From Raillietiella orientalis (Eukaryota), in the NCBI GenBank assembly GCA_036172245.1, contig JAYWIR010000036.1:930001-994000 (forward strand): 64,000 nt of DNA, given 5' to 3'. Made by a program: the position numbers and the translations under genes. Positions within the stretch are counted from its first letter, which is position 1. Each line of letters begins with the position of its first letter. The notes beneath the pieces were generated by a model. The model saw only the letters and a list, made by a program, of their open reading frames with translations. It ran no database searches and was not told the origin of the DNA. Positions 3,538 to 25,402 of this stretch are shown here, one piece after another.

Positions 3538-3786
3538 TCACTCTCGCCTCTGAGCTTCCGTCCTCAGGATCAGGTAGGAATTGACTGCGATGAACAAGTA
3601 GCACTCGAAACCGATGTACAGGAGGTAGGCGATTACGTGGAGGAGCAAGCGGATTATGAATTCCCCCACGTTTCCTAGGAAAAGGTCGAAGCTCAGCACC
3701 GCCTTCACCACCATGAGCACAGCATCAAAGAAAATCTTGAACTGCAGAGCTAGCATCCACAGTTCGAAATATATGGCGTCCGCAGA
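3538..3786 (-). CDS. Terminal exon of four-TM paralog A (orphan or alternative last exon)
   Basis: The acceptor TATTTTCAG is phase 0 and the exon encodes SADAIYFELWMLALQFKIFFDAVLMVVKAV...IGFECYLFIAVNSYLILRTEAQRRE*. It aligns with the 8038-8316 exon (FELWMLALQFKIFFD vs FDLWLTGMQLKILMD). A minus-strand AATAAA lies at 3468-3473. I found no convincing dedicated exons 1-2. Confidence 0.72.
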   Translation of the reverse strand, partial: SADAIYFELWMLALQFKIFFDAVLMVVKAVLSFDLFLGNVGEFIIRLLLHVIAYLLYIGFECYLFIAVNSYLILRTEAQRRE

Positions 3787-4504
3787 CTGAAAATACACCA
3801 CGTGAGAGCTTCTCGGGGGAGGGGGACTTTGGTTTCTTTCCTGACTTTCCCAAAAACAGGCAGGCAAACCCGAAAGGGGAGAAAGAATTGCATCGAGTCG
3901 GCGGAACGCGGGAAGAGGAGGAGGGGCGGAGGGAAAACGGTCGCGTGCAACGTCCGCCGTTGCTGCCCGCTTTCAGCACCGCCCGCGCAAACCGACCCTC
4001 CTCTTGCACCGGGTCGGAGCGGGCCACGTCCCCCCCCCCCCCGTCCTCCGTGCACCATCGTCTTCCTCCTCGCACGTGGACAGCCGGGGGTGAATCCCAT
4101 CTTTCCCGAGACCGTGTTTGCCGCTTGCCTTCGCGCGTCTTGCCACACCGCGGGCGTGGCGAAGATCTATCCGGTGATGGGGGGAATGGGGGGGGGGGGG
4201 CTTCCTCGATCGACGCACAAATGGGACGTGGCAGTGAAAGTGATCAGACAGAGGGGTTCCGTTAATTAGCTGCGCGGGAAGAGCTCGCAAACACTCGACG
4301 GGACCCGCGCCGCACAGCAGAACACGCACATCCAGACTGCACGCGCCTCTTCCCAGCGTCGCCCGCAACCTCCACGAGGTCGCAGCCGGTCCCTTGCGCT
4401 CGTGAGGTTTGAGAGATGCTGTTTCTTGTAACCAGACGTGAGGGTTATGTGGGGGGAGGGGGGGGGGCAGACCACGTCACTCGAACGATGCCGTGAAAAC
4501 TTAG

Positions 4505-4880
4505 AATACGTATATACATATGCGTATTAAAAATTAGAGTACGTATATATATATATATACATTATTCTAATTTTGCAGAATACATATATGTATATACATG
4601 TGAAATGACAGAGACCCGCAGACTTCAAGTGAACACCAGTGAACTCGTGTGCAGTTTTTGTGCAATTTGTAGGAATATGAGATTGTAGTGTGAATGAAGA
4701 AAAAGAGAAAATAAATTCATCCCACCCCTTGTGGGACTTGGGGAAACTACAATATATATTTATGTATACATATTCTAATTTTACAAGCACACACATATGC
4801 GTATGCGTGTGTGTACGTGTGTGTCGTTGTCATGTGGCGTATGTGTGCGGGTGCCGTTGTGATGTGTGTGTGTGTGTAAG
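4505..4880. repeat. (TA)n and (TG)n microsatellite-rich segment
   Basis: TA runs at 4510-4600 and TG runs at 4795-4877. Confidence 0.75.
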
Positions 4881-4953
4881 AGTGACGTCAAATGAGCTTC
4901 TGAGAACCATGGTGAACACCACTCGAGAATTCAAATGGAGCTGCTGACCAGTC

Positions 4954-5759
4954 GGGAGAGCTCATGACCCTGAATTTGGAAACTACAAAGGGTGAAGCTC
5001 AGCTAAGCACGGGAAGCTGAGAAGGAATTCGTGCAGCGATGGAACGGGAGTGATGGAGGAGACTGACGGTGCAGAATCGCCTTCTTAAAAGGGACCCAGG
5101 CACGTGCGGTGTGTTCTTTGACTGACACGTGTTTAACCAGCCGTTTTCAACATCCTTAAGCGAGATTTAAAGCGACGGGGCTTTTGGAGGACGCGTTCTG
5201 AACGTGCTGTCCTTTGCTCATTAAGGCGCACTTGGACGAAGGTTTCCTTCGTCAGTGGGAGCAGTGCCGGAGGCGCTGCTGAACACCGCAACGAGCCAAA
5301 TGCGTGTTTTTTCTGCGGGCAGCTACAAAGCGGTAGGTGGGCAAATGTCCCTTCTCCTGGGACCGGGAGCGTTCGTGTTGGTCGAGAGGATGCTGCCGCG
5401 TTGGATTTGCCAGTTGGGGCCGAAATCTGAACCATGCAGGTGCGTCGAGATGCTCGCGACCCACAATGACAGAGCCCAAGGCGTACGGCGACGGGGAAAC
5501 CTTTCCCGTACGTGGGAACCTCTGAACTTTGCCAGCTTCGTCTCCCGGTGAGGTAGCGAAGAAGTCCGTGGCAGCAGCCTCGGAACGCTCCTGTGGGAAA
5601 ATCACTTCCGTGTTCGAATGGGGGTCGAAAGATTCTCCGAGAGGGAGGGATAGCTCCCGACCCTGGATTTGGCAACTACAACGGTGATGTCAGCTACGCA
5701 CGGGAAGCCGAGAAAGGGATTTATGCAACGATGGAACGGGACTGATGGAGGAGACTGAC
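4954..5759. repeat. Diverged ~113-bp direct repeat pair (4954-5067 and 5647-5759)
   Basis: Both copies contain GACCCTG.ATTTGG.AACTACAA, GCACGGGAAGC.GAGAA and CGATGGAACGGGA.TGATGGAGGAGACTGAC. Confidence 0.85.
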
Positions 5760-8037
5760 CGCACACAGGGTCACTTTCTCAAAACGATTGTTCGGATGAT
5801 TTGAGGTTCGCTGTCCACGGAAACGGAATCCGGAAAAAACGCTGACATTCTCTGCGACGAAGATTTTCGGTTCTCCGTTGGTTGCAACGCATCCCGAGGG
5901 ATCATGACGTCACACGTTCATCGTCGTGCATAACGAAAAATCGTGCGTGTGAGCGAAAATTCCCATCCATCCATTGCATTCATAAAGTAATGCGATCTGT
6001 TAGGGGAAGGGATACAAAAAGGGAAGAAAAAAAAAAAAAAATGCTCGAGGGAACCCATGACGTTCGGAAACCACATACAGCGGGGAAGTGCCCATTCCGT
6101 TGCTTGGGGCTGCGTCGAGCGTGGGCTCCAGTTCTCAGGAAGGGTCAAAGTGCGACACTGCCACCTCAATCCGGGAAGGAGCCTCCATGCGATTCTCTCC
6201 GTGTGTTCCGATCAACAGCGGCGACTTTCCTATGCGCCGAGCGACCAGCGCGCCCCTTTTGCTTCGGTGCCGGATGGACGCGCCCGTGGTGTTCCCGATC
6301 TGTGCCTCCAACCGGAACTTCGCCGCTGCATTTTTCGAGGAACCTCTCGCAGTCCCGATGAAAAAGGAAAGCCTCCCGCGGCCTCTTTCCGGAACGACCC
6401 GTTCGTGTCCACCCGCGCGACGCAAGCCCAAGAAGGACTTCCGGAAACCGCGCGCACCACGCGCGGCCGGTGGGTCCGCGAGCTCTTCGGCGGGAAACTT
6501 TTCCAAGCTTTTTGCAGCTGGAAGATCCGCCCGTCCTGCCGGAGAGGTCAAACTGAGGCTGGCTCTTGCATCTCGTGCTTCCGCCGAGGGAGGGGCTTCA
6601 CGAACGGAGGCGAAGTTTTCGAAGACTGGCGAGACCTACTGCTGGTAAGGAGTCCCTGCGGGAGAGTTGCTGGCCGATTCATCCGGCGGGAGGGTTTGCG
6701 GGCGTGAGAGGCACAAGATGGGGGAGCCGAAGGCGCGGCGCCTGGATTTCCCCGCGCAGAACCAGCCGTCCGCCCGGATGAGCAAAGCTTGCGGGTTGAC
6801 CACTCACTGGACCGCTCCGCCTTGCGCCGAGCGGGAGCCGCTGAAGTCGCCTCGCGCGCCTCGACTCTGCTGGATCGATGCAGCTCGATTCGAGGACTGA
6901 CGGATGACGGCTTCCCCAGCACGGTTTTGCTCACAGCATCCGTCTGCCACGGCAGGACCGGACCGGAACCGAACGGTGCGCGCTGCCAGTCGCTGAGTGG
7001 GGGGGGAGGGGGGGGCGCCGACGACGACAAGTGGATGGTCGCACGCTTGCAGCGCGTTCCGGCGGCGTCGCAACTCGTTCCCGAGACGATCCTTCGCGTT
7101 TCTCCAGAGGTTTCAGTCTCAAACGTATGTGTATTTTCGTCCTTCTTCTACTGTCGCGTGCCTTTTTTTTTTCCTCATCAACTGCTAAACAGGACGGGAA
7201 GGTCCTTAATTGATGATGCGACGGAGGCTGTTCTGCTAGAGAAACCACTCGGTCTCCGCACGTGGATGGCTCTGAGCCAGCTCCCGCAGGCGACCACCAC
7301 CCGCAAACACGAAACACGCAATATGCCCCCGTGAAGCCGAGAAAGTCTTCCAAAGGTTATGCTCCCTCGAGAGTCACGCCCTGCTGCCTGTTTCTCGGCT
7401 TCTCATGGAGTAGAGGAAGGAGAAGCACCCTCGCGACGGTTCGCTTGCAGCGAGGGAGCACCCCGGAGGAAGACTGCGTGAGAGCATGTCAGGTTTTATT
7501 CTTCCCACGGGAAGCAGGTGACAGCGAAGACCTACAACGGCACGGGAAAGACAGCTGTCTCTAGCATCCGCTGGTTTCGCCACCGCTCTCGAACTGGAGA
7601 TGATCGAAAGTTAACCGGAGTGGAAGGCGCGGGGGAGAAGGAAGGGGAGGGGGGGGGGGGAAATCGCCTCTTTTCACCCTAGTGAACACTCCTCGACTTC
7701 TGGAAAAATGGAGCGGGACTAAAAAAGGCACAGACTCTTCGAGATGCACGGGTTTTTTCCTTCTCGAGGAGGGGGATGTGCACAGGGAGGGAAAGACAAG
7801 CACACACCAGTCCGCTGCTGTCTTCGCCGCGTTGCTGCCTCGGTGCAGAGAGCGCCTACAGCCGCGCGGCGGTGGTTCCAGCTCTCACGAGGTTGCAACC
7901 CTCAGCCGCGCTCCTGAACCGTTCAGCAGGAAGGGTGGTCGGTCGGTCGGTCGGGCGAGCGAGCCTCAGTGCTTGCGCCCCTTCCGCTCGTCGACGGACT
8001 TCATCAAAGAACAAGAATTTTTATTGGCACACATCGT

Positions 8038-8316
8038 TCACCACTTCTCGATAGTGGGGTTCACGTGGTACAACCTCCTTTGGTAGGAAAAGGTGCACCA
8101 GAACAAGTAGCTTTCCATCATTACGAACAGAATGGAGCGCAATTCAAACAGGAGCAGATCTTTGAGCATCGTCAACAGGTTGCGTCTTTCCTCTGGTTTC
8201 TTTTTATAAACACTCTCGGAGAAGAATATAGGCTTAATGATCATGACCGTAACATCCATCAGAATCTTGAGTTGCATACCCGTCAGCCAAAGATCAAAGT
8301 CCGAATAGCGGGCATC
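8038..8316 (-). CDS. Terminal exon of a four-TM paralog (probably exon 3 of paralog B, across a ~9-kb intron; 145 aa total)
   Basis: The acceptor TTCTTATTCTTAG is phase 0 and the exon encodes DARYSDFDLWLTGMQLKILMDVTVMIIKP...MMESYLFWCTFSYQRRLYHVNPTIEKW*. It shares the W-x3-[ML]-x2-K-I-x2-D and E-x-[YH]-L...SY motifs with paralogs A and C. A minus-strand AATAAA lies at 8020-8025. The link to the 17.3-kb exons is inferred. Confidence 0.75.
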   Translation of the reverse strand, partial: DARYSDFDLWLTGMQLKILMDVTVMIIKPIFFSESVYKKKPEERRNLLTMLKDLLLFELRSILFVMMESYLFWCTFSYQRRLYHVNPTIEKW

Positions 8317-11300
8317 CTAAGAATAAGAACATCAGTATGAAGGTTGCTGGTTGGGGTCAACTTATTTTACAGCAATTTTGAAAGCGGGATTTCCGTTTCC
8401 TCCGCCTCCGTTTTTGTTTTTTTATCAGAATTTATCGTTAGCGAACTTTCGTTTTCATTTTTACTTTCCCCTCTGAACAAGTCGACGGGGTCGCATCGCG
8501 TCCCGAAACGCCGGTGGGATCCGACGATCGTCTTTTGCATCCCCCTCGGAAAAGGAGTCCACCGCACCCCAAAATCACGGCGAGTGGGAAAGACGCGGCA
8601 AGAACATCGCTTGGAAGATGTTCCGGCAGACGGCGAACCCCTCGTCTGGCAACCGTGGAGGTCCACCTTCCATCGAGGTGGAATGGACGGATCGAATCGT
8701 CCACCTGCACTCTGCAGCAGCGGCAGTGCAGTAGCCGGTTTCGCGTTCCGCGTCGAGCAGTCCGCATTCCTTTCATTTCTTCGGGGGGGGGAGGGGGACC
8801 GACAGAAATGCCAAGCATCTGCAAAGGCAGCCCCCACCCCGAGCCCAGTCTCGCATTCGGTTGCTGCTTGGTGACGCACGGGAAGCCAAGTCAAGCCTGA
8901 CACGGTGTTCAGCAGCCTCGATGCCCTTCCCGAGTTTATCCACCAGATGCTGCGCGTTCAGAGGCGTGCACCATCCTCCTGCGCTTTCCTGGATCGTCGA
9001 CCCAGCAGACCTGAGCAACTTCACCGGGAATGGCTGCTAACTGGATTAGGATGGCACCTCGAAAATCTCGAGGTCGGACAACGGGTTCGGGATGGATCGC
9101 ATTTCGAACGCTCGAGCGTACCCTTGCACCGCGATCCTTCATCTTTCATTCCCTCTTTGATAGGAACGCGACTCGAGTGCCTGTGGCAGTAATCATCCTA
9201 AATGCATCCATTAATTCTTCGCCAGTCTTTCAGGCAGGAGTCCGTTGACAGGCTTCCCACTGTCGTCAAGCTGTTCATTTGTTTTCCCTTCCTCGCCGAT
9301 GCTTAACAGTCAACGACTCTAAGGTTAAGTATTCCTTTAATATTAATTTGTCTTCGGCAAGTTCCCCACGTCTGGAATCCACCGGAGAACATTTATTACC
9401 ACTGATAATGGGTGGAAAAAACAAAATAAAATAAATACACCTCGAGGAATAAATATGCGTTCTTCAAGATGCAGATGTGCGCAGTTGTCGGCCGCCTCTT
9501 TCGGAATACGAGAAATTCTGGAAAATCCGGGCGGAAAAAAAGTCTGCTTGTGCGCGCGCGGGTGTTCCTCCCCCCCAACTTTTCCTCAAGACGCAACTTT
9601 AACGTTTACTTTCCGGTTCTTTGAGGCATTACAATTTTAACGCGGGGGCCACTCATGCATTAATAAACAAGCTTTATTAATTTATTGCGGCTTGGCATCT
9701 TCCTGTGTCAGGAATGGTGTTTTGATTTTTACTCTCAGAGGTTGCTTGGATTTATGATTGCCAACTTCCTCTGGACCAAGTTTGGTGCGCGATTCGGGAA
9801 ACTTGGAAGTCTGTCGGGATGACGAAACCGGGCGAACGTCAAAATGTGCAGGGGCTTCCTGCAGCAGCCGCGGAAGAGACGCGTGCCCAGCTGGGGGGCG
9901 GTGGCGGCCATGCAAACAACGGACTCTTTTGAAAGCCCAGTTTTGCGGCCACCTGAAATGAAGCACCTGAAACGCAGCCGCGCGGATCCACACCGCCGCG
10001 ATGAAGCACTCTCTACCTGCAGAACCGGGAACGGAGTTGGTGAATTCGAAAGATGAAATGCAAGGAATGCGTTCGTTTCATCACGGGGTTAAGGCAACCT
10101 TCGCGGTAATCATCCCGAGCTGCCGCTATGGTGAATTTGCAAGGAATCCGACGCGTGTAAGCCTCCTTGAGAGTAAAATTGAAACCATAGCGAATGGTTG
10201 CTATAATTGAAATCCTGCTTCACCAACGGTGCTCCAGCTTGATCAGAAGGCAAAAAAAAAAAAACAAGAAAAAGGAAAAAGAAAAAGACAGGATTCCCAA
10301 GGGGAAACATTTGTTCAATTGTCCCCCAAGTGTACTTGGACTTTCGATTCTGAAGTGGCCTCCGGCATTTTCCCCCATTTCCCGTTGCTATCACAACGTG
10401 TGTCCCTTGCCACGGCGCCCGCCATCATCTCCGCCGGCTCTGTCACGTGACCCGAATCGCCGCCGGAACCTGCGTTCCTTGCGTCAGCCTTGCTGCACCT
10501 CGGGTTTCTTTGCCTTTCAGCGAGCAAGTTCCCAATCGTGTGCCCGTCTGCGTTGCAGCGAAAGAACAGAAGGATGTGTCCGTGCGCACGGGGAACCAAT
10601 GCACATGGCAGCTCGAACTGACCACACCAGCAGGTGCGTTGGTTGACCTCTTGATGCGTTCCGGTTGCATTCTAGATGGGAAGGTTCCTCTCAGCAGTAC
10701 TAAAACCGGGAGCTCATCTTCGTCGTCTCACTTCGCTAGCAAAGACGCCTTGGTGTTTTTCAACTGCTCTCTTTAGGAAAGGAACTGACTGCTCCTCGAT
10801 GCATCGGATATGTCGCAAACATTCTTGCATCAGACTCCAAATCACTGGTGTGAGGAAACGGGTGATTTCCCTATCCAGCTCGCTTCACGGATTCAATCGG
10901 TGTTTCCGCTAAGGTGATGCGGCAATACTTTGCTCGGTGATGTTGAGAACTGACCTTTTCCGAACCAAAGAGCTGTTATTTGTGTAACTCGTTTTAACAT
11001 CGAGTTGCGTTCTTTTTGCGGATTTCACTTTCCGTTCTTCAAATTGGAATCCTTTTTTTCTTCGAGTCTGAACTCTTCTCGAGTTCAAGAGCCCCAACCT
11101 GTTTTTGTGCCTGTTGCAAAGGAACTCGAACATGTTTAAGGGAGGCTGACGCAAGCTCGGATGAATTCATCCGACTTAAGATTCCACATACCACATCGCC
11201 TTCCACGGCAGCCACACAGTTTACGAACATGTTTTTTTTTTTTTGGAAATTCACAGACGTGCATGTTAGGTATGTGAATTTCACGCGGATTCCCGACACA

Positions 11301-14300
11301 CGGTGTCCCGTGCCGCGGATTCACGACACGAGACACAGAACAGGACGTTTGGAATTTCAATGTGGGAAAAGCTCGTCAAATGACTTTAGGGAAGCAAAGA
11401 GGAATGCAAAGAATCACCCTCGGCTTAGTGGTGCTCGTTTTGTGCTTGCAGTGCTCGAGGTGTTTCAGCAAATAACCAAATGTTTGAAGATGGCACTCTC
11501 ATTCTTCCGCACTGGAAAATTCCACGATAATGCTCAATTTGAAAAGGGAAAGCATTTCTACGTATTCTTCCTTCTGTTTTCGTTTCTTACAGATCTGAGG
11601 AAGTACATCTTCAGCTCAAGTACCTTTCTTTCTTCCTGCAGCAAACGCAAACAAGAGTTGCTTTGATTCCAGCCGCTGCCTTGAATTTCACTTAGCATTG
11701 AAGACGATGCACACAGCACCGATCTGCAGATCCCGAGATGCAGGAAACCCAGAAAGACACCCTACATGTTTTGTGCTTTGAGCGACGGAATACCCAAAGA
11801 GTTCTGAATAGACCAATGAAAGCAGTGCAGGGTGGTATTTGAAATTTCCTGCTTGCTACGTGCTCTGCTTTTTCACTGCAGTAGAAAAGCGAGGACTGAC
11901 ATCTAGGAAAAGACTTGCTCACATGAATTCGTGGGAACTGCACTCCGAGGAGTGACAGAAGATGAAGTTTCCCGGTTCTTGTAGACACTCAATAATTTCT
12001 GAACAAAGTGATGTTTAAGGTCAAAGACGGAAGATGGAAAGAGAGAAGAAAATTTTATGAGGAAGTTATCAACAGCGGTGAGTGGAAGTCTGTTCGAAAA
12101 AGGAGAAGAAAACAAGCTGATTCCTGTCTCAGCCGCGACCAAACAGTTCTCAACTCTGAATGGTCAAGAAGTGAACCTTTCCTGACAAGGGGAAAACCTG
12201 GCCTTGGGCATGAGCTGCAACAGCGCCTCGTTTCCCGTTTCGAGATGATCCACGCAGGAAAGCAGACGCTGTGCGAACGCTGTTTTGGATCTCGGATCCA
12301 TCTGATGGGAAGGGAGGTTTTTTCGAGTCACCTTAGAAAACAGCGACCGTGATGATATGAATCTGTCCTGGTCAGTTCGCCTGACAAGAGTAGGCACCAG
12401 TGCGTGCTTCCTCTCTTGCAACTCTCACATTTTGTAGATTTCCATCCTCCAATAAGTATCTGTCTGTCTATTCCCAGACCTCTCATCTAAGCACATAGTG
12501 CAAGAAACATGGAAATTTTCCGCTTGTTTCGTCGAAGAGTTCCTTTTCCCCTCCACCTGTGTTTGTGTTCCTTTTTTTTGATTCGCTGCCAAGTTCCTGA
12601 TAATTGAAGGCCATGCTGGAACACCGATGAGGCATCCAGATGAGGCGCAGTAGAGAGGAAAATGACTCCACATTCAAAGGTGCATTTCTCCAGGCTGATT
12701 GGACTCGCAACGGACTACGCTCAGCATCTGGATGGTGCCCGAGAGCGTTCGTGGTCGAGCTTCAGGGAAGGATCTCCGGTTTCCCTGTCACTTGGCTAGC
12801 TCGAGGGCGCAGATTGCTTTTTGTCTGACTGACGCCACCGAGTGTCTTGCTACTACCTCATTCTAACTACCATTGCATTTGTCAGTCGGACTCCCGCTGG
12901 CTGCTACTATAATGCGCTCGCGGAGAATGAGAAAGGAAAGTGAAAGTGCTCCCAATGAAAAATGGAATACGGAATGGGAACATTAAGAGACGGCAAGTTC
13001 CCATCACACTGCTTATAGGTTAACGGGTCTCATGGAACTGTCCAGGACACAGAATCCTAACAAGGAGACTTTCCTAGGACGACGACAAGACGGGAAGGTC
13101 CAAGATCCGTTCAGTCTTGTACCTGAAGCGAACACCGCAGACCAGCTTGTGGATGGAGCCCTGCTTGGACAAGAGATCGGAAACGAGCACATCGTGCGGA
13201 CGAAATCGAACTGGTCGAGAGTAGGTGCAAAAGGGCTCGTCCTACAGAGGAACTTGCTTCGTAGAGCACGTGCGGCCCAACGAGGAACGAAACGGGCAAG
13301 AGCAGCAAAAAATGGGTCCTCAAAAAAAGGGAGAGACCGTACTGGAACACACCGCACGCTCCAATCACGTACTGTCCTAAATACACGTTCCTCCTTGCTG
13401 TGCAAAACTACTTAGGCTAATGGCTACAAAGTTCCTGGGAAACATTATCCTTTCAGCAACTTTTACTGCACATGTGAATGCATCCGCGGCTTTCCGGGGA
13501 ACTCGGTGATTTGTGAGAAAGTCTTTCGCACTCGATCGATTTTCGGACGACCGACGAGCTCAGACTGAGAGTCTGCCCTTCTTACCAACGAGCAGTCGAT
13601 GCCAGTTTCTTCGCGGTCATGTTCCCACGGGCTCGGCACGCGCGCGAATCGCGGTCACTTCTGCTTCCGGAAACCATCGCACGGGCAAGTCGGAGAGTAT
13701 CCTTCCACGCGTTTCCCGCCACGCAGTCAGGAACAGCGTCCAACTTGTGCTACGCAACGCTCTCGAAGGCCATTCGAGGCCGCGTCAGAGGTCACTCCTG
13801 TGCCGCGGAGTCAGAGGATTCTTGCAGATCCGCCTACCAAGTGCAGCAGTTGATAAGTGCTGCTGCGAAACTGGATCCCAACCATAGGCAGCACACAGCT
13901 TTCAGAACAGAGTTTTCTAGAGCCGGCAAAAATGGTACAAAGCCCAAGGCTGCACATCCCAACTTTGAACATCTCGAACGTGCGCTCGTTGACCACAGGA
14001 GGCGTTGCAGCGGAGGATGTTCGAACTCTCGAGGAGGGATAACTTCTCAACTCTTCAAGCCATTCGTAGGACATAGAAGGTGGTGGTTGTGCTTTGGGAA
14101 GACATCGCGAAAACCCTAGCGGAGGCGTAAACTTTTGGTATTTGAGTGATGTGAAGGGGAGTTTAAACGAATGTGGGAATCAGGTGCATTCAGGGGAAGC
14201 AAGGCTGGTTAAATTCGTAGCATCTCCCAAGAAGGCAAAAGAGCAGTGGTAGCCCAAGCAAAGAATCATGGGTGTACCCTGAAATTTTGAGGTTCCTGAG

Positions 14301-17300
14301 ACCCCAGCAGCCTTAGATCGCTTCTAAAGACCCTGTTCCACAAAAATGGGTATCGGCAAAGGGGAAGAATTTTTTCCATTTCCTGAAAACCCAGTGCACG
14401 AAGGACGATGAGTTTAAGATTTCGCTCTATCCTGGGGCACGGTTCTAAACGTGACCGCCACCATTTTTGAAACCTAACATTTGACTCATTTAAAAATCAA
14501 AGAATTCCTAGAAGACGAGAATTCTCGATGAGGAATCATCGATTTGGAAGTGAATCGATGAACCATGCATCCTAAGTGTAGTCATCCACTAAACTGTCAC
14601 AAAGCTACCAGATTTTAGTAACAGAGGCAGCAGCAGCAGCAGCAACAACAACAAAAGCCAGAATTTTCACGTAAAGTGCAATCTCGACTGATGCACTTCT
14701 CTTTTCATTTCCAAAGAGCATTGAGAGCTCCAGCGCCACACATATGCACGCTTGGCAGCACCAAGGTCGAACTTCAGAGTCGAGAAATGATCGTGCGAGA
14801 ATCCCTCTCTGAAATGCCTGGGGACGTGGTCCTCGGATGTACGTGGAGGCCGAGCATCTGCGAGTGCCTGTCCACGGACGCTTTTCCGACAATTTGGAAA
14901 AAGCTAGGGTAATCCTTCTGGTTGACTCTTTTTGGCTCGATAGCGAAAAGGGATGTACCAAAAAGAGGACTATTTTGTCAACTGCGACGATTCTTTAGAC
15001 AGATACTCTGGCCAGATAGAGATACTTCCAGAAGTCTGCTTCTTTGCTTTAGCGGTGTGCTCGTGCTGTTGGTTGTGTCTCGCAGAGAACAAGGCGAAAC
15101 CTGTATTGATGGTCCATCCGCTTTGTCCAGGAGACTTTTACTTGTCCGGCGTCTTAACTCTTCATCCAACGATTCACAAGAATACAGAAAAAGACACTAA
15201 ACAGAAATCGCTATATAATATATTTTCAGAGTGGGTTTTCCCATCTCATCGTGTTGTTACGGAGACCACACAGGAATCTTGTGATTAGCAATTAACACGT
15301 GATCTACAGTATTTTAACTGTCTGTGTTCATCGTCTGCTTTCCTAGAGACAACGTGCAGACACCGTGGATCTCGTTGCTTCGCTTGTTTTTCTAGATCAG
15401 ATTTTCAAACCCAAAAGGTTATTAATTAGCGTCACGGAATATTTGAAAGCGAAAAATATGAAATCAAATGGGAATGGACATCTGGTAGCCATGGGGGCTG
15501 AACAGGTCTCTTTCGTGCAACGCTTACGGACACATTAAACTCCAAGGTCGGCTTCTGTTCTTCGCTATAGCAGCAGACGTTGTTCCATACACGTGCTGCA
15601 AGGATGCTGGAACCGCTCATTCAGACCAATGTCTGCTTTCCGGGTTCATAGTGTACACACCCTTGGAACCGAATTGGTTCCCGCAAAACAGAACGAGCAC
15701 AAAGCGTTCTTCTTCAGAAATGACAGCTGTGAATTCTACGACTTAAAAGAAGTGAACTGCTTAGAAACAAGCGCTCATGACGGTGGTATTTCCTTCGTGC
15801 AGATCAAGTGTAGAAAGCTGACGAGGTTACAGATTTGGAGCATAAGATCATCGTGCAATGCCTTTCTTCTTTTTTTGAACTGAATGGTCAGTGCTCGTCT
15901 TCAGATTCAAGGCTTCTTCATTCCAGGGAAGCTTTGGAAAGCTTTATTTAGAGCTTTGGAAAGGTTATGCTTATGACGTGAAATGATGCTTTATGACGTA
16001 AAAGGGACGTAGAAAACTCATGTCCCAGATGTCCAAACTCCCATTCCAAGCCCTAATTCCTGGGATTCTTATCATAAGTTATTTACAGGTTCTCAAAAGA
16101 ACCTCCGACGTTTGAAAGACATGCGAAATGTCATCTTTATGGAGGGATTCCAAAAGGGTGGATATTTTCCTCTAGGAGATTCTGCTTTCCCAGAGCTGTA
16201 CCACCATTCTCCAGGTAAGATGAGCGAGGCTACTATTCCTCAATAAAAGACAGTATCCAGAAAATCCAGAAGTGCGCAAGGGGGGGAGAGGAGGAGAAAG
16301 GAATCGATCTTGGAATAAGAAGAGATTTTCCCAGATGACTTTCGAAGATAAAGGAGTTGAGACTTTTCGGAAAGATTAACTTCAGGTGAGTTCCGAGAGA
16401 ATCCATTCCACACATTTGCGGGCATCCGACGGAAATCTTTTCGAGATCACTATTATTATTTTGAAAATTCGTTCCCTATACCACTGTAATTGTGTGAATT
16501 TATTTCCAGACAAGTTTTCCCCACTCCTGCAATCATTTCTACGTCTTCACTCATGAGGCAGATATCGTTTCCGTTCCCATGGAACTGATACTGTTCCATG
16601 CAGTTAATTGGAAATGTTCAACACCCAAAAGACTGTTATTTTGGGATTGTTTTTTTATCTTAGGCTTCAGGTACCTTGCAACAACAACAACAAAAACAAC
16701 AACAAAGAAGAAGAAGAAGAAGCAGTAATGACTCGCAAGATGACTGCTGTGGCCATTGTCTGGATTAAAATTAGTCAGTATTTTTAGATGTTCAGCATCT
16801 TTCTTTGCTTTTCTCTGGCATCTTAGACCAGGTTTTAGTTTTTTATTAAACGGAGAGAGGCCAAGCAGTGAGAGAGTGGATTAATCATTCAAGAACTTCC
16901 GTTAACCATGTGATCTCGGCTGGAAACATCACATGAGGGAGCAGCACTACTTTTCGATTCTTTTTTTAGAGACAGCTGAAAGATAGCAGTGCGATGTGTC
17001 TCCTGTTTCGTTTCACTTAATGAATTGGATTGGCATGATTCAAAACATTCATTACTTATTCGATCAATCAATTGGGTCGGGATTTAAAATTGTAAAAGGC
17101 CGTTGGATTCATATGTCATCCTCATCCCCTCTATACATGGATGAATGATGACATTTGAAGTCAGTACCAGAACTTTTGCTACAAGTACACCTATTCAACT
17201 ATGTATGCGTATGTATGTGTGTACAATATATATACTCATTGGTAATGTAAGTTATTCACAAGTAATAAGGATAAATTAAAACTAAACAAATAAGATAAAA

Positions 17301-17313
17301 GAGTGCTACTTAC

Positions 17314-17527
17314 TGCTATGACCAGTATCAGCAGAAAGACACCCAATAATTTGTCAAATATCAGTGGACCCTTAAAAACGACATGGATGGAGAAGAAGAA
17401 AAAAAAAAATACATGGAATACTTACGACGAGGAGATAAACAATACTTAAAAGGATGCATCCTTTTCTCAAGTCAAGTCCAAGGATGTCCCTCTTAAGAGG
17501 CAAGCTTTCCCTTTGCTGTCTGTCCAT
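17314..17527 (-). CDS. Exons 1-2 of four-TM paralog B
   Basis: Exon 17527-17426 encodes MDRQQRESLPLKRDILGLDLRKGCILLSIVYLLV and is followed by GTAAGT and a 55-nt intron. Exon 17370-17314 is exactly 57 nt (GPLIFDKLLGVFLLILVIA) and is followed by GTAAGT. It is clearly homologous to paralog C exon 2 (GSLMIDKLMATILIIALLL). Confidence 0.82.
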
Positions 17528-19029
17528 GTTTACACAGACAGTATTGAAATCAATGCTTTGCAAGCTATCGAATTCATCGAAGAGTCTTAGAACTGCTAAA
17601 TTTTTCAATCGTCGGACGAAAACTGAAAATCATCTTTCCACAATAAAAAAAAAAAAAAAAAAAAAAAAACAGCAAAAAAGCAAAAAAAACAAAAAAGGAA
17701 AACTGTTTGACCAGATTTTGTTGACCGATACGTCCGTTGTCCTAGCAACAGCAATAACGGAAAACAAACAAACAGCCCAAAAGCAAGTTCTTCGGCCATG
17801 AGGAGGAGGCAAGCCGTTTGAGAGCGAAAGAGCGCCCCCAACGAATCAGCGACAATCTGCATCATTAATTAGGAATCGTCAGTGTGGATTGCCGGCGTCC
17901 ATCGCTGGGTGACTGGCTGCTGGAATGGATCGTTCCGGGGGGGAAGGGGGAATCGCAGCTACCGCGCAGGGAGTGCCTTGGTCCGGGCCCAGTTTGGAAT
18001 GTCCCGGATCTTCCCAGACGGATCCACCCGAGCTTTCCTCTCCGAGGAGCGCACCGCAGCGCACCTCCGAGAGGCCAAACCGAACGCGCGTTCGGTTGAC
18101 GCGTTTATTTTTACGAAAGAGTACAGACAGACACCCGACCTAGCAATTTGGATGGGTGGCTGAGGGGGCCGATAAAAGTTTCCCCCTGAGTGCGCGCGCG
18201 CGCGCGTGTTTGTGTTGTACCCCCTCCCCCTCCCCAAGAAAAAAAAAAAACCAAAAGGCGGGATTAATAGTTTCCGCTGGAAACACCCATCCGGAAGAAA
18301 CTTTTTGGTCGCAGGAAGCAATACCGCGGGCGGGGGGTGATTTCGCTCCCTGGAAGGAAGCCTGGTCCCTTTCCTTCCGGCTAGATGTGCGCACCTCAGC
18401 AGAAAGTAGTAAGCTCCCCCCTGTTCGCCGAATCCTCCGCCCCGGACCCATCGTGTCACCGCAGGCTGATAGAGAGAGAGTCCTCGCTGCGACGAAAGGG
18501 ACCTCGAGCTGCGACCGCACTCGAGAGGCCGGGGGAGGCTGGCTCGAGGACAGCGAGATGAGCCGAGTCCCGAGTGGTTTCCTGTGATCAGCGCTGCTTC
18601 AGCAAGTTTCCAGGGATTCCCATCCTTAGAGCGGCGGACGAGGAGAGGCTGCTCACGCGGCTTGTTTGCGGGGAAGGAACGACCGCCAGCCCTCCGTCTC
18701 GGTGCCGAACCCTCGTCTCCCGCGCGTCCCACGTTCGAACTGCTTCTTCGGGTCCGTTTGTCCCGGGTTTCAGAGTCAGCTGGATGTGCCCCCTCGAGCA
18801 TTTCGTTGCCTGCCGTCCTTTCGGATGAAGCTGCGTCCAAAGGGTGGTCGCGGTCGACTCGGAATGACCGTCCATCCGGTGCGCCTCTTTCATTATTGAA
18901 ACTCGGGCTGCCGATCCTCTGCTCCGCTGCCGTCGGGCACGACGATTCGTGCCCCCAGTGCTAACGGGCCGACCTCTTTCCGCGAACCGCCGACGTTTGC
19001 CGCAGTGGGGCGGCAGCCGCCGGGTCGAT

Positions 19030-19200
19030 GCCGAAGAAGATAAAGCCGATGATGAAGATGAAGGCGAACGTAAAAATGAAGATGATGATGATGATGAAGA
19101 TGACGATGAAGGCGAAGGTAAAAATGAAGAACATGAAGATGATGAAGCCGATGATGAAGAAGATGAAGGTGAAGATAAAAATGAAGAGGGCGCTATTGAA
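19030..19200. repeat. (GAT/GAA)n low-complexity tract with three higher-order units
   Basis: GAAGG[CT]GAA..TAAAAATGAAGA recurs three times within GAT runs. Confidence 0.85.
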
Positions 19201-19884
19201 GCAAGAAGAACCAACCCGAAGGATGACCCACAACCCTCGCTGAGAGGTACTGGAGTATGATCTGCCTCCACGTGCATCCGAGGACCATTGTGCCCGGACA
19301 TTGCGAAAGGCTCACAAGAGGGAGGTTTCCTCAGATGAAAAGCATGGTGGCGGACCGAAGAGAGCTCCAGTGGGCCGGGTCTGGACCGCTCTTCGGAGGC
19401 CTCCTGGGTCCAGCATCTTCCTGCCCTTCAGAAGCGGCACTCTGCGTCGGCCAGGATCCTGTCGGAGGGGGTGGGTGGGTGCGAATCGTCGTGTCGAACG
19501 CGCGCCCCCTGCTGGAATACTGCGATGCTGCCATCTGGCTGGGGAGCTCTGGGAGGGGGAAGAAGAGAGGGAGGAGAGGAGAGGGAAGAGGTATGCCCCC
19601 TTCTCTCCTTCCCCGTGCCGCCGCTCCTCGCGTCGAAACGGTTTCCAGGGCGTCAAGAGGAGGGCCCTCGGCTGCCCCGACTCCTTCCGAGCTCGAGAGC
19701 CGCTGGCGACGCCGAGTGGGCGCGCCCTCGGCCGAAAAGGCCGCCCCTCCCTCCCTCGCGGAAGCTTTTTCGATCGCGAACCGGCCGGAGGAACTTTCCG
19801 GGCCTGCGAGCCGCCCTCCGGGACCCTGCGAACGAGGCGTGCGGGACTCTCGGTTTTATTTATTGTTCTTCCCGCAGCGCGGCG

Positions 19885-20404
19885 TCACCGGCGCTCGGAG
19901 TAGATCTGGAGGTACGAGTAGGTGACCACGACGAGGTGGAGCTCCAGCAGGATGTTGAAGAACGCCGCCATGTACATCGTGACGCCCAGGTAGATGGCTG
20001 TCTCGCTGTCCAGGACCTTCCCCGTGTCCTGCTGGTACCTCTTCAGCTGGAAAGGGATGATAAGGGGGGATATGATGAGGATGAGCACGTCCAGGATGAT
20101 CTTGACGTCCATGGCGAGTATCCAGCCGTCGACGAGTCCCCTCCTTTTCTTGAGAGGGGACGGGTATGAGAGGGAGGGGAGACGGCCAAGGGGCAGGGCG
20201 GGCTTACCAGAAGCAGTGCGATAATGAGGATGGTGGCCATGAGCTTGTCGATCATCAGGGATCCCTGGGTGCACAGAGTAGGGGGCGAAGGAGGGGAATG
20301 GGAGCATGGCTTACCAGCAGCAGGTAGAGGAGCGACAGCAGGACCAGTCCGTTGCCGACGCTCAGGCAGAAGACGGAGCGGACCAGAGGCTCTGTGCGCG
20401 CCAT
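19885..20404 (-). CDS. Small four-TM membrane protein, LAPTM4/DUF4728-like, paralog C (136 aa)
   Basis: Exons are 20404-20315 (MARTEPLVRSVFCLSVGNGLVLLSLLYLLL), 20264-20208 (57 nt, GSLMIDKLMATILIIALLL) and 20148-19885 (KRRGLVDGWILAMDVKIILDVL...LELHLVVVTYSYLQIYSERR*). Both donors are GTAAGC, the introns are 50 and 59 nt and phase 0, and overlapping minus-strand AATAAA signals lie at 19855-19864. Confidence 0.85.
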
Positions 20405-21429
20405 CTCACTCGTCTCCTTCGCGGCGGCAGGCGAGGTGAAGGACCACCTGAGTGTAGGGGGTGACCGGACCCGCTGCTGCACTTCGAGCTGCTCCCGTCC
20501 TAGGAGAAGCTAGCGACGGAAAAACAAAAAAACAAAAACAAAACAAAAACAAAAAAAACGAAAGGAAAGAAGAAAAAAAAGCAAGGAGGCCAAACGAAAC
20601 CACCCGAGTTGCTGGGCAACGGTCCCACGACTATTGTTCTGTGCTCACTCCACTTTGTTTTTCTCTTTTTCCTCCCCCTCCCCTTCTTGCCACGCTTTCC
20701 CCCCTTGAGGAGGGGGTTCCACTCTCGCCGCGCGCACAGCCTCGGACGTCGGACATCTTGTCGCCCGTTTTCTCTCGGATCATGGAAGCCGACGGTGAGC
20801 TGGGACCGGGCGGCCACCCAATCCAGGAGCCCCCGTGATGCTGCACCCCGGAAAATGAGCGCCTCGGGTCTAAATTCATCCGAAATGAGCGTCCGACGCA
20901 GCCCTTGGCGTCCCCCCCCGTCCGATCGGGGCGGCCCGGCGTCTGCCACTCCACCATGGCAAATGCCGGCGGTTCGCGGAGGCCGCGGCTCCGCGCTTTC
21001 CCTCAAAGTCTGCCAGGTGGGAGCGCTGCTTCCGCCGGAGTTCCCTGCTCCCTGTGGGACGTTCAGCACTGTCGGCAGGGCAACGCGGCTCTTCGTGGAA
21101 GGTGGGCGATGGCCGTGTGTGTGTGGAGGGGTGATTCCAGCCGACATGGCTACCGGTTTCGGGTTCGCTTTTACCCGACCGCCTACGCAGGCTGGCATTC
21201 CCTCCCGTTCCTGGATACGTCGAAGGATCGGTGCTTTCGTCCGGCCTCCCCTGAGGATCGCCGAGGGTTTGCACGGAGGCGACGTTCCGCGCACGAGACG
21301 ACGGACACCCGAGGGGCGATTTCCGGCTGCGCCGTCCTCCACCGGGGACCCGCGGGGAGGGGATCTTTCGTGGTCCGGCTGCTTGGAGGGAGCGCTGCCC
21401 AGCGCTCCCTCCAAGCGCAGACAGTGGAA

Positions 21430-21760
21430 GAGCAGGAGGAGGACGACAGCGACGATGATGAAGATGATTAGGATGACAGTGGAGAAGAAGGCATGATGAC
21501 GATGCTGGGAGCGAATCATAATAATAATACTAAGATGATGACAATAAGGATGATGATAAAGAAGATGAAGAGGAATAGGAAAAGAAAGAAGAAGATGGAG
21601 AAGAGCAAGAGTAAGAGGGAGAAGATGAAGAGACGGAGGAGGAGGAGAACGACGACGAGGATGACGATGAATAATAACATTAAGGAAGAGAATTTTAACA
21701 TTAAGGAAGAGATGAAGACGTTGTTATTGATGAGGAGGAGAAGGAGGGGGAGACCGAGAA
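21430..21760. repeat. (GAT/GAG/AAG)n purine-rich low-complexity tract
   Basis: Directly visible. Confidence 0.8.
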
Positions 21761-22143
21761 GGGGTGGCTACGGCGTTGGCAGCAGCTCCCAGCGCAGGCG
21801 GCTTGCTGGTCCTCAGACAGCAGTCTCCGGTCGCTTGTGTGGCGGGTGCCGGCGAGGGCTGCCGACTGCCTTTGGGTGGCTGCAGGCCTGCGAGAGCAGG
21901 TTGGGGTCTCTCCACCGGCGGAGCGGCGTGCGCTGTGAACGTGCTCCTGGGCACAGAGTACGCCCGATCCTCGGACCCGGTCCTCTGGGGTCGTTCCGTT
22001 TGCTCTGGGGACACGAATCGCCGTGCCATTTCGATTCCTACCTCCACCCTTTTCCGCCTTCCGGAGAAGTCGGGTCGCTCCGATTGGCGCGCTGAGGTCT
22101 TGTCTTCGGGATCACTCCACTCGCCATCCGTTGAGTAGGGGAT

Positions 22144-22212
22144 TTCTAACCCAGTCACGCCGGGGCGTTTATTCCATGTGAACATCAAGATTACAGAAAA
22201 TAAGAGGGGATA
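22144..22212 (-). mobile_element. 69-bp retroposon 3' end flanked by a perfect 11-bp target-site duplication
   Basis: GAGTAGGGGAT occurs at 22133-22143 and 22213-22223. The minus-strand insert ends AATAAACGCCCCGGCGTGACTGGGTTAGAA. Confidence 0.72.
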
Positions 22213-22590
22213 GAGTAGGGGATCGAGTGGAGAGAGGAGGGAGGAAGGGGGGGGGGGAGATGTCGAAAAGGAGTTGCAGCGCTGGTCAGTGAGGAGAAAA
22301 GTTTACCCACCTCTCGGTCGCCTGGGTGGCGTTGGCAACTCCAAGATAAGCGTACAAGACAGCTGCCGAAGGAGCACTACGTGCCCCAGGCTATGAACAG
22401 GCGCCTCCTTCTCCTTCCTCCTCCCTTCCCTCCTCTTGTCTTCCTTCTCCTTTCCTTTCTCCCTTCCTCCTCTTCTCCTCCATCTCCTTCCTTCTCCCTC
22501 CTTTTCTTCCTTCCTTCCTTTTTCTCATTCCTTCTCCTTCTTTTCTTCTTCCCTCCCCCCTTCTCCTCTCTTCCTCTTCCCCTTCGTCCT

Positions 22591-22874
22591 TCCCTCCTTC
22601 GAGGCGCTCGCTCGCACGGGGGCAGAAACAACCTGGAAAAGAACGAGCGACGTGACACTGCGGGGGAGGAAAGTTAGTCTTTGTCAGGGGACAGGAAAGG
22701 ATCTCCAAATTCCTGGGCGATGCTGGGTCTCGGGGAAGGGAGGGGGAACCTTCGTGACCTCTCCCGCAGCTCTGATGAGGGTACGCGTTGGCACCACACG
22801 CTGATCTCGAGGTCTCCCAGTCGCTACCTCCAGGAGAGGAAATTTTCCGCTCCCCCGCCATCGGGGGGAGCCCG
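22591..22874. repeat. 284-bp direct repeat, copy 1
   Basis: Ungapped match to 25119-25402 (offset 2528), with about 10 mismatches by manual count. Confidence 0.95.
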
Positions 22875-23740
22875 GCTCATCGGTCACGCAGGGCTCCAGT
22901 CGGTCTGCTGGCGCCCTCCGCCCGCTCTTGGCACGCCATCTGGAACCGCATTTTCGGGCTCTCCTTTCCGGCAAGGTCTCCTGCTTTTCGAGTGCTCCAG
23001 GACTTCCCCGGGTTCACCCCGGAGGAGAAGCGACTTGTGGGAGGACTAGCCCCCTTTCTGTCCTTCCTGGTCCTTTCGGGGAGCTCGGAAGGCTGAAAGT
23101 GGACCTACCGCGGGCAAGGAAGAGATCGAATCGGTGATCGCTCTGCGCCTCGGGCATGCCGGGGCTGTAGGGGGGCCAGAGCAGAGGCACCCGAAGGCGG
23201 ATCGCGGATGCCTTGCAGGAGAGGAAGGCAGTAGATGCGGCCACTTTCCACGGAGCCACTTTCCGGTCGGCGGCCGTTGGGGGACGTTGGGCTCCGACGT
23301 TTCGCCACCACAGGGGCGGGCCGCTCCCCCGCCTTGCCCGCTGCTTCGGAGCGTGCTGAGGGCGCAGTCCATCGGTGCCACGGGCGTCGCTCCCTGCTGT
23401 CGCAGCCTCCCCCGAGAAGCGGACGCCGGGACGGTGGCCGGGTATTCCCTGAGCTCTTGCTTCGCCCTTGCCGCGCCCTCCCTCGTCTCGGCTTCGGGAG
23501 CGATCCCCTCCGCTCGAAGGTTCCCCTCTCATTTCCACCCGCCTCCTCGCGCTTCCCGGGAACCGGCGGCAGGAGGCCTCCCGACAACCCCCGACCGGAG
23601 AATTTCCTTTTATTGCTGTTCCTCGCGAGGGGCGCCGGATCGTGCGCAGGGGCCGCTTCGCTCCCTTTTCTAGGTTGGACCTGGCCTCTGTCCTTCCGCG
23701 GCGCGCAGCTCGGCGCGGAGACTCCAGTTGCTCCGCTCCT

Positions 23741-24718
23741 CTAAGTCTCCTTGAGGTGTTTGACGTAGTACTCGTTGACGTACATCAGACACAGGTAGTC
23801 AACGATGAGGTGCATCAGGGAGATGAGCCAGTAGCACATGTTCCTGCTGAAGAAGGTTTCCCGTTCCTGGGGGGGGGGAGACGCCTGGTACGTGGTCAGG
23901 AGGTACACCAGCGTGACGACCAGGATGATGAAGAGGAAGAGTATGCGGATGAACATGACCACTATCCAGATGAGGAAGATGTCGCTTGAGTCCTAAAATC
24001 GCATCTCTAGGTCACAACCTCTCCTTTTGCTTCTTCCCTTCCTCCTCCTTCCCTCTTCCTCTTTTCCCCTTCCAACACTTTTCGCACTTCCTCCTCCTTT
24101 TCTGCACCCTACCATTCCACCACCTTTCTCCTTTCTTCCTCTTTTTCGTACTTCCCTTCCTCCTCCTCCTCCTCCTCTTCGCTGAGGAATGAACTGACTC
24201 CCACGGGGGCGCGGAATGAAGAGAGAGATTCCCGAGGCTCTCCTCCCCTCCCCCTCGCTTCTTCTGGATACCGCGTGTCAATGCGTCATAGGTCCAGGGT
24301 TCGCTCTTATGCGGAGCGTGGTGGCGCCACTGGCTGCGAGACGTTCTTAGGATCCCGAGGGAGCAGCGGATTCGTCCCTCTTTTCCTTCTCTACCATCCT
24401 ACACTACCCCCTCTTTTCCTTCGCCTTTCCTTTTTTCCCCGGAAAGGTCAGGTGCCGCCTGGGTGCCCTTCGTCAGAGAGGGCGCCTGCAGACGTGCGCT
24501 CGGACCGGGACCGCGACCTCGCGCGCACGCTTCCAAACTTACCAGGAAGTGCCCAATGGCGAGGATGAGGCCGCACAGCTTCGTGCACGGATCAGGGGAC
24601 TAGGCAGAGGATGGGAGTGGGGGGCATTGTTGGTAAGGAGGTCATACGTTACCAGAATCAGCTGCGCTATGGCGACCAGCCACACGGTGGCCCTGGGGTC
24701 CTTCAGTCCGGTGGCCAT
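23741..24718 (-). CDS. Small four-TM membrane protein, LAPTM4/DUF4728-like, paralog D (124 aa)
   Basis: Exons are 24718-24653 (MATGLKDPRATVWLVAIAQLIL), 24599-24543 (57 nt, SPDPCTKLCGLILAIGHFL) and 23992-23741 (DSSDIFLIWIVVMFIRILF...VDYLCLMYVNEYYVKHLKET*). Donors are GTAACG and GTAAGT, acceptors are TAG, and all introns are phase 0. A minus-strand AATAAA lies at 23609-23614. Confidence 0.8.
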
Positions 24719-25118: not shown

Positions 25119-25402
25119 TCCCTCCTTCGAGGCGTTCGCTCGCACGGGGGCAAAAACAACCTGGAAAAGAACGAGCGACATGACACCGCGGGGGAGGAAA
25201 GTTAGTCTTTGTCAGGGGACAGGAAAGGATCTCCAAATTCCTGGGCGATGCTGGGTCTCGGGGAAGGGAAGGGGAACCTTCGTGACCTCTCCCGCAGCTC
25301 TGATGAGGGTACGCGTTGGCACCACACGCTGATCTCGATGTCGCCCAGTCGCTTCCTCCAGGGGAGGAAATTTTCCGCTCCCCCGCCATCGGGAGGAGCC
25401 CG
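25119..25402. repeat. 284-bp direct repeat, copy 2
   Basis: Ungapped match to 22591-22874. Confidence 0.95.

Follow-up and report, generated by a model that had tools for sequence, protein, structure and literature searches.

What is encoded by a row of short, mutually similar exons on one strand of a 64,000-nucleotide (nt) stretch of the Raillietiella orientalis genome (GenBank assembly GCA_036172245.1, contig JAYWIR010000036.1, positions 930,001 to 994,000 of the forward strand; hereafter the window)? On the minus strand, between positions 3538 and 24718 of the window, we observed four homologous terminal exons, three of which have an exon 1/exon 2 pair upstream. We refer to the three complete gene models as genes B, C and D, and to the remaining exon as terminal exon A. 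It is very likely, judging from the tests described below, that these exons belong to a real and unannotated tandem gene family. The explanation that we favor, with somewhat better than even confidence, is that the locus is a tandem cluster of paralogous protein-coding genes, consisting of three complete genes and terminal exon A, and that the product is a small protein of the tetraspan type.

The exon borders are listed in Table 1. An earlier, model-made reading of the letters of this stretch (the sequence-only reading) had described three exon 1/exon 2 pairs in which exon 2 is exactly 57 nt; we located all three, in genes B, C and D, and exon 2 is 57 nt in each. The model lengths given in that reading were likewise reproduced from the exon borders, with predicted products of 124 (D), 136 (C) and 145 (B) residues. 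All introns are in phase 0, because every exon length is divisible by three. The predicted introns measure 53 and 550 nt in gene D, 50 and 59 nt in gene C, and 55 nt in gene B, where a further 8997 nt separate exon 2 from terminal exon B. We provisionally assign terminal exon B to gene B as its nearest homologous terminal exon.

Table 1. Positions of the genes, signals and repeats discussed in the text, in window coordinates.
Feature	Position	Strand	Details
Gene D exon 1	24653-24718	minus	ATG at 24718; 22 codons; short basic N-terminus and hydrophobic run; donor GTAACG
Gene D exon 2	24543-24599	minus	57 nt; TKL motif; acceptor CCTAG, donor GTAAGT
Gene D terminal exon	23744-23992, TAG stop 23741-23743	minus	83 codons; predicted TM3-loop-TM4
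Gene D AATAAA	23609-23614	minus	127 nt past stop
Gene C exon 1	20315-20404	minus	ATG at 20404; 30 codons; donor GTAAGC; GC3 0.90
Gene C exon 2	20208-20264	minus	57 nt; DKL motif
Gene C terminal exon	19888-20148, with TGA stop 19885-20148	minus	87 codons
Gene C AATAAA, two overlapping	19855-19864	minus	21 and 25 nt past stop
Gene B exon 1	17426-17527	minus	ATG at 17527; 34 codons; donor GTAAGT
Gene B exon 2	17314-17370	minus	57 nt; DKL motif; donor GTAAGT
Terminal exon B	8041-8316, with TGA stop 8038-8316	minus	92 codons; acceptor TTCTTAG
Terminal exon B AATAAA	8020-8025	minus	13 nt past stop
Terminal exon A	3541-3786, with TGA stop 3538-3786	minus	82 codons; acceptor TATTTTCAG
Terminal exon A AATAAA	3468-3473	minus	65 nt past stop
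TMED5-like gene	35163-38031	minus	4 exons, complete-looking; emp24/GOLD, p24 family; found by tblastn with five TMED5-type proteins
TMED5-like exon 1	37822-38031	minus	
TMED5-like other exons	~36603-36827, ~35435-35503, ~35163-35384	minus	
Direct repeats flanking gene D	22591-22874 and 25119-25402	plus	284 nt each
Match to U4 RNA	2815-2894	minus	80 nt
Inverted interspersed repeat copies	3-172 and 48169-48323		
ORF beside one inverted copy	47553-48545		
AT-richer island	8000-18000		GC 0.40-0.51
GAAGAT-type imperfect repeat	19033-19187		
Purine-rich GGA/GAA arrays	36204-36445 and 41071-41172		

We next compared the signals at the exon borders with their frequency in the window. All predicted introns run from GT to AG. 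The six donors are GTAAGT (three), GTAAGC (two) and GTAACG (one), such that all six begin with GTAA and five with GTAAG, a sequence found 39 times on the two strands of the 64-kb window, five of these being the predicted donors. Each of the seven acceptors is an AG behind a pyrimidine-rich run. The polyadenylation signal AATAAA follows the stop codon by 13-127 nt in all four terminal exons; it occurs 35 times on the two strands of the window, as compared with 8.3 times expected from shuffles. Open segments of exactly 57 nt between an AG and a GT number 273 in the window; eight are strongly hydrophobic, and two of the eight are exon 2 of genes B and C, whereas exon 2 of gene D lies under the hydrophobicity threshold of this screen. 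Overall, the gene signals exceed chance. The sequence-only reading had assigned to each terminal exon a phase-0 acceptor, a stop codon and a nearby AATAAA; the acceptor and stop are present in all four, but the AATAAA of gene D, the most distant of the signals, is less near than that reading implied (Table 1).

The terminal exons have the base composition of coding sequence. G+C content at third codon positions (GC3) is 0.73, 0.66, 0.92 and 0.88 in A, B, C and D, respectively, as compared with 0.26, 0.28, 0.28 and 0.25 at second positions (GC2); at first positions (GC1) it is 0.46 in D and 0.54 in C. The exons of gene B, with GC3 of 0.42-0.66, are below those of genes C and D. We measured similarity between the copies using a database of all 1772 open reading frames (ORFs) of at least 15 amino acids (aa) in the window. 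Pairwise phmmer comparison linked A to B (E-value 8e-7) and B to C (1e-4). When a profile was built from three terminal exons, the omitted exon was the best non-member match in all four cases, with E-values of 4.5e-4 (A), 1.4e-12 (B), 9.8e-7 (C) and 7.4e-3 (D), and for each of the four exons none of 1000 shuffles of its own residues reached the real score. For exon 2, the number of shuffles, among 1000, that reached the leave-one-out score was 0 for B, 4 for C and 9 for D. We take gene D to be a distant but real member of the family, since the leave-one-out profiles and the shuffles recover its exons. Profile similarity among the four terminal exons, the lack of which the sequence-only reading had said would speak against a family, is thus present throughout, and every motif that it had listed was found in the exons: DKL in exon 2 of B and C, and TKL in that of D; W-x3-[ML]-x2-[KR]-I in all four terminal exons, followed by D in three; and, 9-10 residues before SY (A, B and C) or EY (D), an acidic residue, which is E in A, B and C and D in gene D.

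Similarity is restricted to the proposed reading frame, except for a weaker signal between A and B in antisense frame r1 (0.003). At the DNA level, we detected no significant blastn similarity between exons (best E-value, 0.03), which implies that synonymous sites are saturated. The full-length paralogs are 21-32% identical; together with the saturation, this points to deep divergence and is no measure of the fast evolution or diversification that the sequence-only reading had proposed. These data bear on the possibility that the cluster is decaying or was never expressed, being made up of relics of a dead family or of ORFs that resemble exons by chance, in which an insertion of ~9 kb would have split gene B. 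We found no orthologs in the libraries searched (see below), the last intron of gene B is unusually long, A is incomplete, and the region is gene-poor and repeat-rich, with one real Pfam domain among 332 other ORFs. Nevertheless, an open frame runs through each of the 10 exons, the splice sites are canonical throughout and none of the four polyadenylation signals has been lost. Moreover, the contrast between GC3 and GC2 and the frame-specific similarity have outlasted saturation of the DNA, which is not expected under neutral decay. We therefore consider a decaying or silent cluster improbable.

Terminal exon A differs from the other copies in that its 5´ exons are missing. Searches of the window for 57-nt open frames, with exon profiles, with relaxed lengths and with a motif regular expression failed to turn up an exon 1 or exon 2 that would belong to it, and none of the eight hydrophobic 57-nt candidates is near it. 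Yet it keeps an open frame, a strong acceptor (TATTTTCAG), an AATAAA of its own and coding-type GC3 relative to GC2. Its closest relative is the adjacent terminal exon B (8e-7). It would thus be either an alternative last exon of gene B or an orphan exon whose 5´ end has been lost or is unrecognizable. In the first case, A and B would be alternative last exons, and one or the other of two hairpins would be spliced to the constant exons at 17.3-17.5 kb that encode the first two membrane segments. The intact signals of an exon with no look-alike exon 1 or 2 in the window, and the fact that A and B are both adjacent and the closest pair, are consistent with this arrangement. By contrast, it needs a 13527-nt intron that skips the complete terminal exon B together with its polyadenylation signal, and the 5´ exons of A could instead have been lost or have diverged too far to be recognized. 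We regard alternative last exons as a distinct possibility that falls short of being probable. The putative 9-kb last intron of gene B coincides in position with an AT-richer island within surroundings of 0.57-0.67 GC (Table 1). Between the first exons of gene B and gene C lies a GAAGAT-type imperfect repeat whose plus strand reads as an acidic open frame rich in D/E; GGA/GAA arrays that are likewise purine-rich occur at two other places in the window.

To describe the predicted products, we used a hydropathy profile, which is the basis of all transmembrane (TM) labels used here. There are four hydrophobic blocks: one in exon 1, one in exon 2 and two in the terminal exon. Exon 1 has a hydrophobic run of ~11-21 residues. 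The 19 residues of exon 2 open with GP, GS or SPDP, followed by D/T-K and then by a hydrophobic run 12 residues long. In the terminal exon, a polar loop of 11-21 residues separates two long hydrophobic stretches, and AlphaFold2, given terminal exon A and the four-sequence alignment, placed helices at residues 2-37 and 40-81 (mean predicted local distance difference test score [pLDDT], 81.5). The run in exon 1 is separated from the segment in exon 2 by 2-7 residues in all three genes, in agreement with the earlier description of a family with almost no loop between TM1 and TM2. Both termini of B and C have a net basic character, and the C-terminal tails are ~7-15 residues long. The simplest reading, and a probable fold class, is a four-helix membrane protein whose two ends are cytosolic and whose first loop is all but missing.

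The near-absence of a first loop would be easier to explain if exon 1 encoded a cleaved signal peptide, leaving a mature three-span protein that begins just before exon 2. In all three genes, exon 1 is laid out like a signal peptide, with a charged start and then a hydrophobic run of 11-21 residues; the helix breakers GP, GS and SPDP come directly after it, at the start of exon 2, and in gene D an A-x-A lies just within the exon 1 hydrophobic run. However, a small-x-small site is absent from the exon 1/exon 2 junction of B and C, and the pasiflora family, the nearest analog, is without a signal peptide (PMC4582180). On balance, we think that a cleaved signal peptide is unlikely.

Under the four-helix explanation that we favor, exon 1 would supply a short basic N-terminus and the first hydrophobic segment, the 57-nt exon 2 a 19-residue hydrophobic segment with its helix-breaking G/S/P opening and D/T-K, and the terminal exon a helical hairpin of TM3, loop and TM4. 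The product would be an integral membrane protein of 124-145 residues with four helices, cytosolic ends and hardly any exposed loop. The conserved charges are found in three of these helices: D/T-K in TM2, 12-13 residues before the cytosolic end; K/R and D in TM3, 7 and 11 residues past the W; and E/D in TM4, 9-10 residues ahead of SY. Counted in this way from the ends of the helices, the charges would be at comparable depths in the bilayer, which suggests a buried cluster of ionizable residues, a feature arrived at by counting residues and not from a computed structure. In our favored reading, a protein of this kind would serve as a small tetraspan-type accessory or scaffold subunit that packs against itself or against partner membrane proteins via the charged cluster, in cis, as is thought for tetraspans of the pasiflora and LAPTM type. 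Its action would be confined to the plane of the membrane, because it would have no ectodomain.

We also searched for relatives elsewhere, using the terminal exons or their alignment as queries; these represent ~60-65% of each protein, C-terminal to its first third. With the four terminal exons, hmmscan of Pfam at E-values up to 10 returned chance-level rows only, and neither PF15860 (DUF4728; a profile of 91 positions with a cut-off of 26.7 bits) nor PF03821 (Mtp) was listed. We set aside as chance level the rows for DUF3624 (0.41), YniB (0.078), Phycodna_minor_capsid (0.19) and ATP-synt_8 (1.2). There were no matches among PDB sequences. A word-indexed protein search with the C terminal exon gave one candidate, which did not score, and the same type of search with the family alignment against longer proteins gave 4457 candidates, of which none scored at E-values up to 10. 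A profile of the alignment had no hits at E-values up to 0.001 among 1,835,955,588 protein representatives. Single-protein queries gave one pattern match in viral contigs and 142 in metagenome contigs, none of which was confirmed. Absence from the protein libraries may partly reflect the fact that short multi-exon genes are rarely predicted. In a language-model atlas, for which the tool draws its own line at 0.9 and by whose calibration the present placements are leads and not evidence, the C terminal exon was placed nearest to an unnamed, nematode-rich cluster (0.91) and then to two clusters bearing DUF4728 (0.85 and 0.82), while the B terminal exon was placed near unnamed clusters (at most 0.84) and then TMEM135/Tim17 clusters, with no DUF4728 cluster; the look-alikes thus differ between paralogs B and C. 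The family is apparently restricted to its lineage and probably of the small tetraspan kind.

The sequence-only reading had noted a resemblance to LAPTM4/Mtp and to arthropod DUF4728 tetraspanners. This found no support at the level of profiles, Pfam listing neither family at E-values up to 10 and the atlas giving DUF4728 scores for C only, both under the 0.9 line; the likeness is reduced to motifs, with W opening TM3 and [VT]x[SE]Y closing TM4. The closest parallel is the pasiflora/Fire exit group (Pasiflora1, Pasiflora2, Fire exit and CG15098/ikebana), whose members are also small, very hydrophobic arthropod proteins with four segments and short tails. As described by Deligiannaki et al. 2015 (PMC4582180), the pasiflora family has four TMs, intracellular ends, no signal peptide and a first extracellular loop of larger size, with PW at the start of TM3 and VxSQYQ (Pasiflora1) or VxS (Pasiflora2) where TM4 meets the C-terminal tail, PW alone being common to the wider family. 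Drosophila CG15098, a member of the pasiflora tetraspan family, has both Mtp and DUF4728, according to 10.1101/2024.04.13.589362, and DUF4728 is given as arthropod-specific or panarthropod in 10.1101/112664. The genes described here have in common with this group a W that does not vary where the third helix begins, along with a motif of the V/T-x-S/E-Y type where the fourth helix passes into the tail, and both families have several diverged paralogs per genome. They differ in that they have no profile match, no P before the W and no larger first loop; in length (124-145 as compared with 169-258 aa); in having conserved charges inside three helices; and in forming a tandem cluster with an invariant 57-nt exon.

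The genes could nonetheless be highly diverged, loop-less members of the pasiflora/Fire exit group (DUF4728, Mtp), which would be compatible with our favored explanation and which we consider possible but somewhat unlikely. The group is panarthropod (10.1101/112664), and the window is arthropod-like (see below); the W at the start of TM3 is invariant in the four copies, and the boundary of TM4 and the tail reads VNSY (A), TFSYQ (B), TYSYLQ (C) and VNEYY (D), although strict VxS occurs in A only, with the Y invariant; and the two DUF4728-bearing atlas clusters point in the same direction. On the other hand, the residue ahead of the W is L, L, G or I and never P in the four copies, the larger first extracellular loop is missing, the products are short relative to Pasiflora1 (169 aa) and Pasiflora2 (258 aa), the two atlas scores for C are below the tool's line and B has no such cluster, PF15860 and PF03821 are not listed for any of the four terminal exons, and the profile search of 1.84 billion proteins was empty.

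LAPTM4A, LAPTM4B and LAPTM5 (Mtp, PF03821) likewise have four hydrophobic segments and cytosolic ends, as predicted here for the window's genes. They are lysosome-associated four-span adaptors that are thought to act within the membrane and not as enzymes, and the C-termini of LAPTM4/5 carry PY-type and lysosomal sorting motifs. The predicted proteins are unlike them in having no PF03821 match to an E-value of 10, about half the length, and C-terminal tails of ~7-15 residues that lack a proline-rich PY-type motif. In claudin/PMP22 proteins (PF00822), a structured first extracellular loop bears a signature motif. Claudin/PMP22/MARVEL-type proteins have the same small size and the same general plan of four helices with both termini inside that we propose here; these families are defined by structured extracellular loops, as stated in PMC4582180. 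By contrast, the first loop of the proteins described here is virtually absent, and they have no Pfam match, including to PF00822, and no PDB match.

Several observations weigh against a functional family of four-helix proteins. The case for the gene models is built on sequence signals and that for the putative function on composition and analogy, and no ortholog or other relative was found in any of the libraries searched, such that no conservation between species is seen. The similarity of the gene D terminal exon to the others is weak in pairwise comparison (E-values from 0.08 to more than 100). The last intron of gene B, at 9 kb, is far longer than those of genes C (59 nt) and D (550 nt), and terminal exon A is without 5´ exons. 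With respect to topology, loop 2 is acidic in three of the four copies, which gives no support from the positive-inside rule, and some hydrophobic runs are short, at ~12-13 residues in exon 1 of B and D and in exon 2 after D/T-K; two full membrane spans in exons 1-2 are not assured, because of the length of these runs.

The window is eukaryotic. GC content varies from 0.40 to 0.67, and CpG depletion is absent, with an observed/expected ratio of 0.80-1.07 in all 16 blocks of 4 kb. We scanned with Pfam 332 ORFs outside the family, in two sets: 84 of the 87 ORFs of at least 90 aa with less than 47% R+P+G+S+A, three family ORFs being excluded, and 248 of the 249 ORFs of at least 110 aa with at least 47% R+P+G+S+A, one ORF that overlaps gene C being excluded; in that second, high-R+P+G+S+A class, ORFs of 90-109 aa, 81 in number, were outside the scan. 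The sole meaningful domain was the start of an emp24/GOLD domain (E-value 3.1e-4), which led to the complete-looking TMED5-like gene in Table 1. When the emp24/GOLD exon was used as the query, 10 of 48 candidates were hits, to TMED5-type proteins with 72-80% identity, and the gene has a GC3 of 0.88-0.96, the same codon bias as the putative four-helix family. The window represents an arthropod-like, probably pancrustacean genome, because the named sources of the nearest relatives of this exon (louse, ant, shrimp and brine shrimp) are all four pancrustacean arthropods.

The cluster is located in a gene-poor stretch that bears repeats. Gene D is flanked by two sharply bounded direct repeats, 284 nt long, 96% identical and 2528 nt apart, without a poly(A) tail and with no obvious target-site duplication seen; these may represent a short interspersed element present twice or, alternatively, the two termini of a composite element. 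The flanking repeats raise the question of whether, in place of host genes, we are dealing with cargo carried by a mobile element or by an endogenous virus. This is highly improbable: repeat flanking is limited to gene D, the predicted introns are spliceosomal, the host TMED5-like gene has an equal codon bias, there is no relative in viral contigs, and none of the 332 ORFs scanned has a transposase, reverse-transcriptase or viral domain.

A further interspersed repeat is present as inverted copies that are 76-88% identical, and the ORF beside one of them ends in a Cys/His knuckle and has no Pfam match; by eye, we take the knuckle to resemble the tail of ORF2 of a retrotransposon without long terminal repeats (non-LTR). 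A match to the 5´ part of U4 small nuclear RNA scores 46.8 bits, as compared with a gathering score of 46, and lacks the 3´ half, including the last 55 positions of the model; we take it to be, in all probability, a U4 pseudogene that has been truncated. At 42.2-42.9 kb, what had been suspected to be a membrane gene on the plus strand proved to be a low-complexity repeat.

A more far-reaching version of our explanation would make this an arthropod-lineage family without relatives, whose products are minimal, loop-less four-helix bundles held together by an acid-base cluster within the membrane. Its diversification would be modular, by tandem duplication of whole genes and by a swap of hairpins in gene B (exons B and A), such that one promoter gives rise to bundles with different cores. 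We consider this combination quite unlikely. If hairpins are indeed exchanged by means of alternative last exons, this would be an unusual way of varying a membrane protein. Gene finders and ORF tracks miss genes of the kind described here because no exon exceeds 92 codons. If expressed, the cluster would give an arthropod genome a further family, so far unannotated, of polytopic membrane proteins of very small size. Being nearly all membrane-embedded, with conserved charges inside their helices, such proteins would offer a compact natural model for minimal helix bundles, and they would be candidate accessory subunits of membrane complexes, a role that pasiflora tetraspans have been shown to play in septate junctions.

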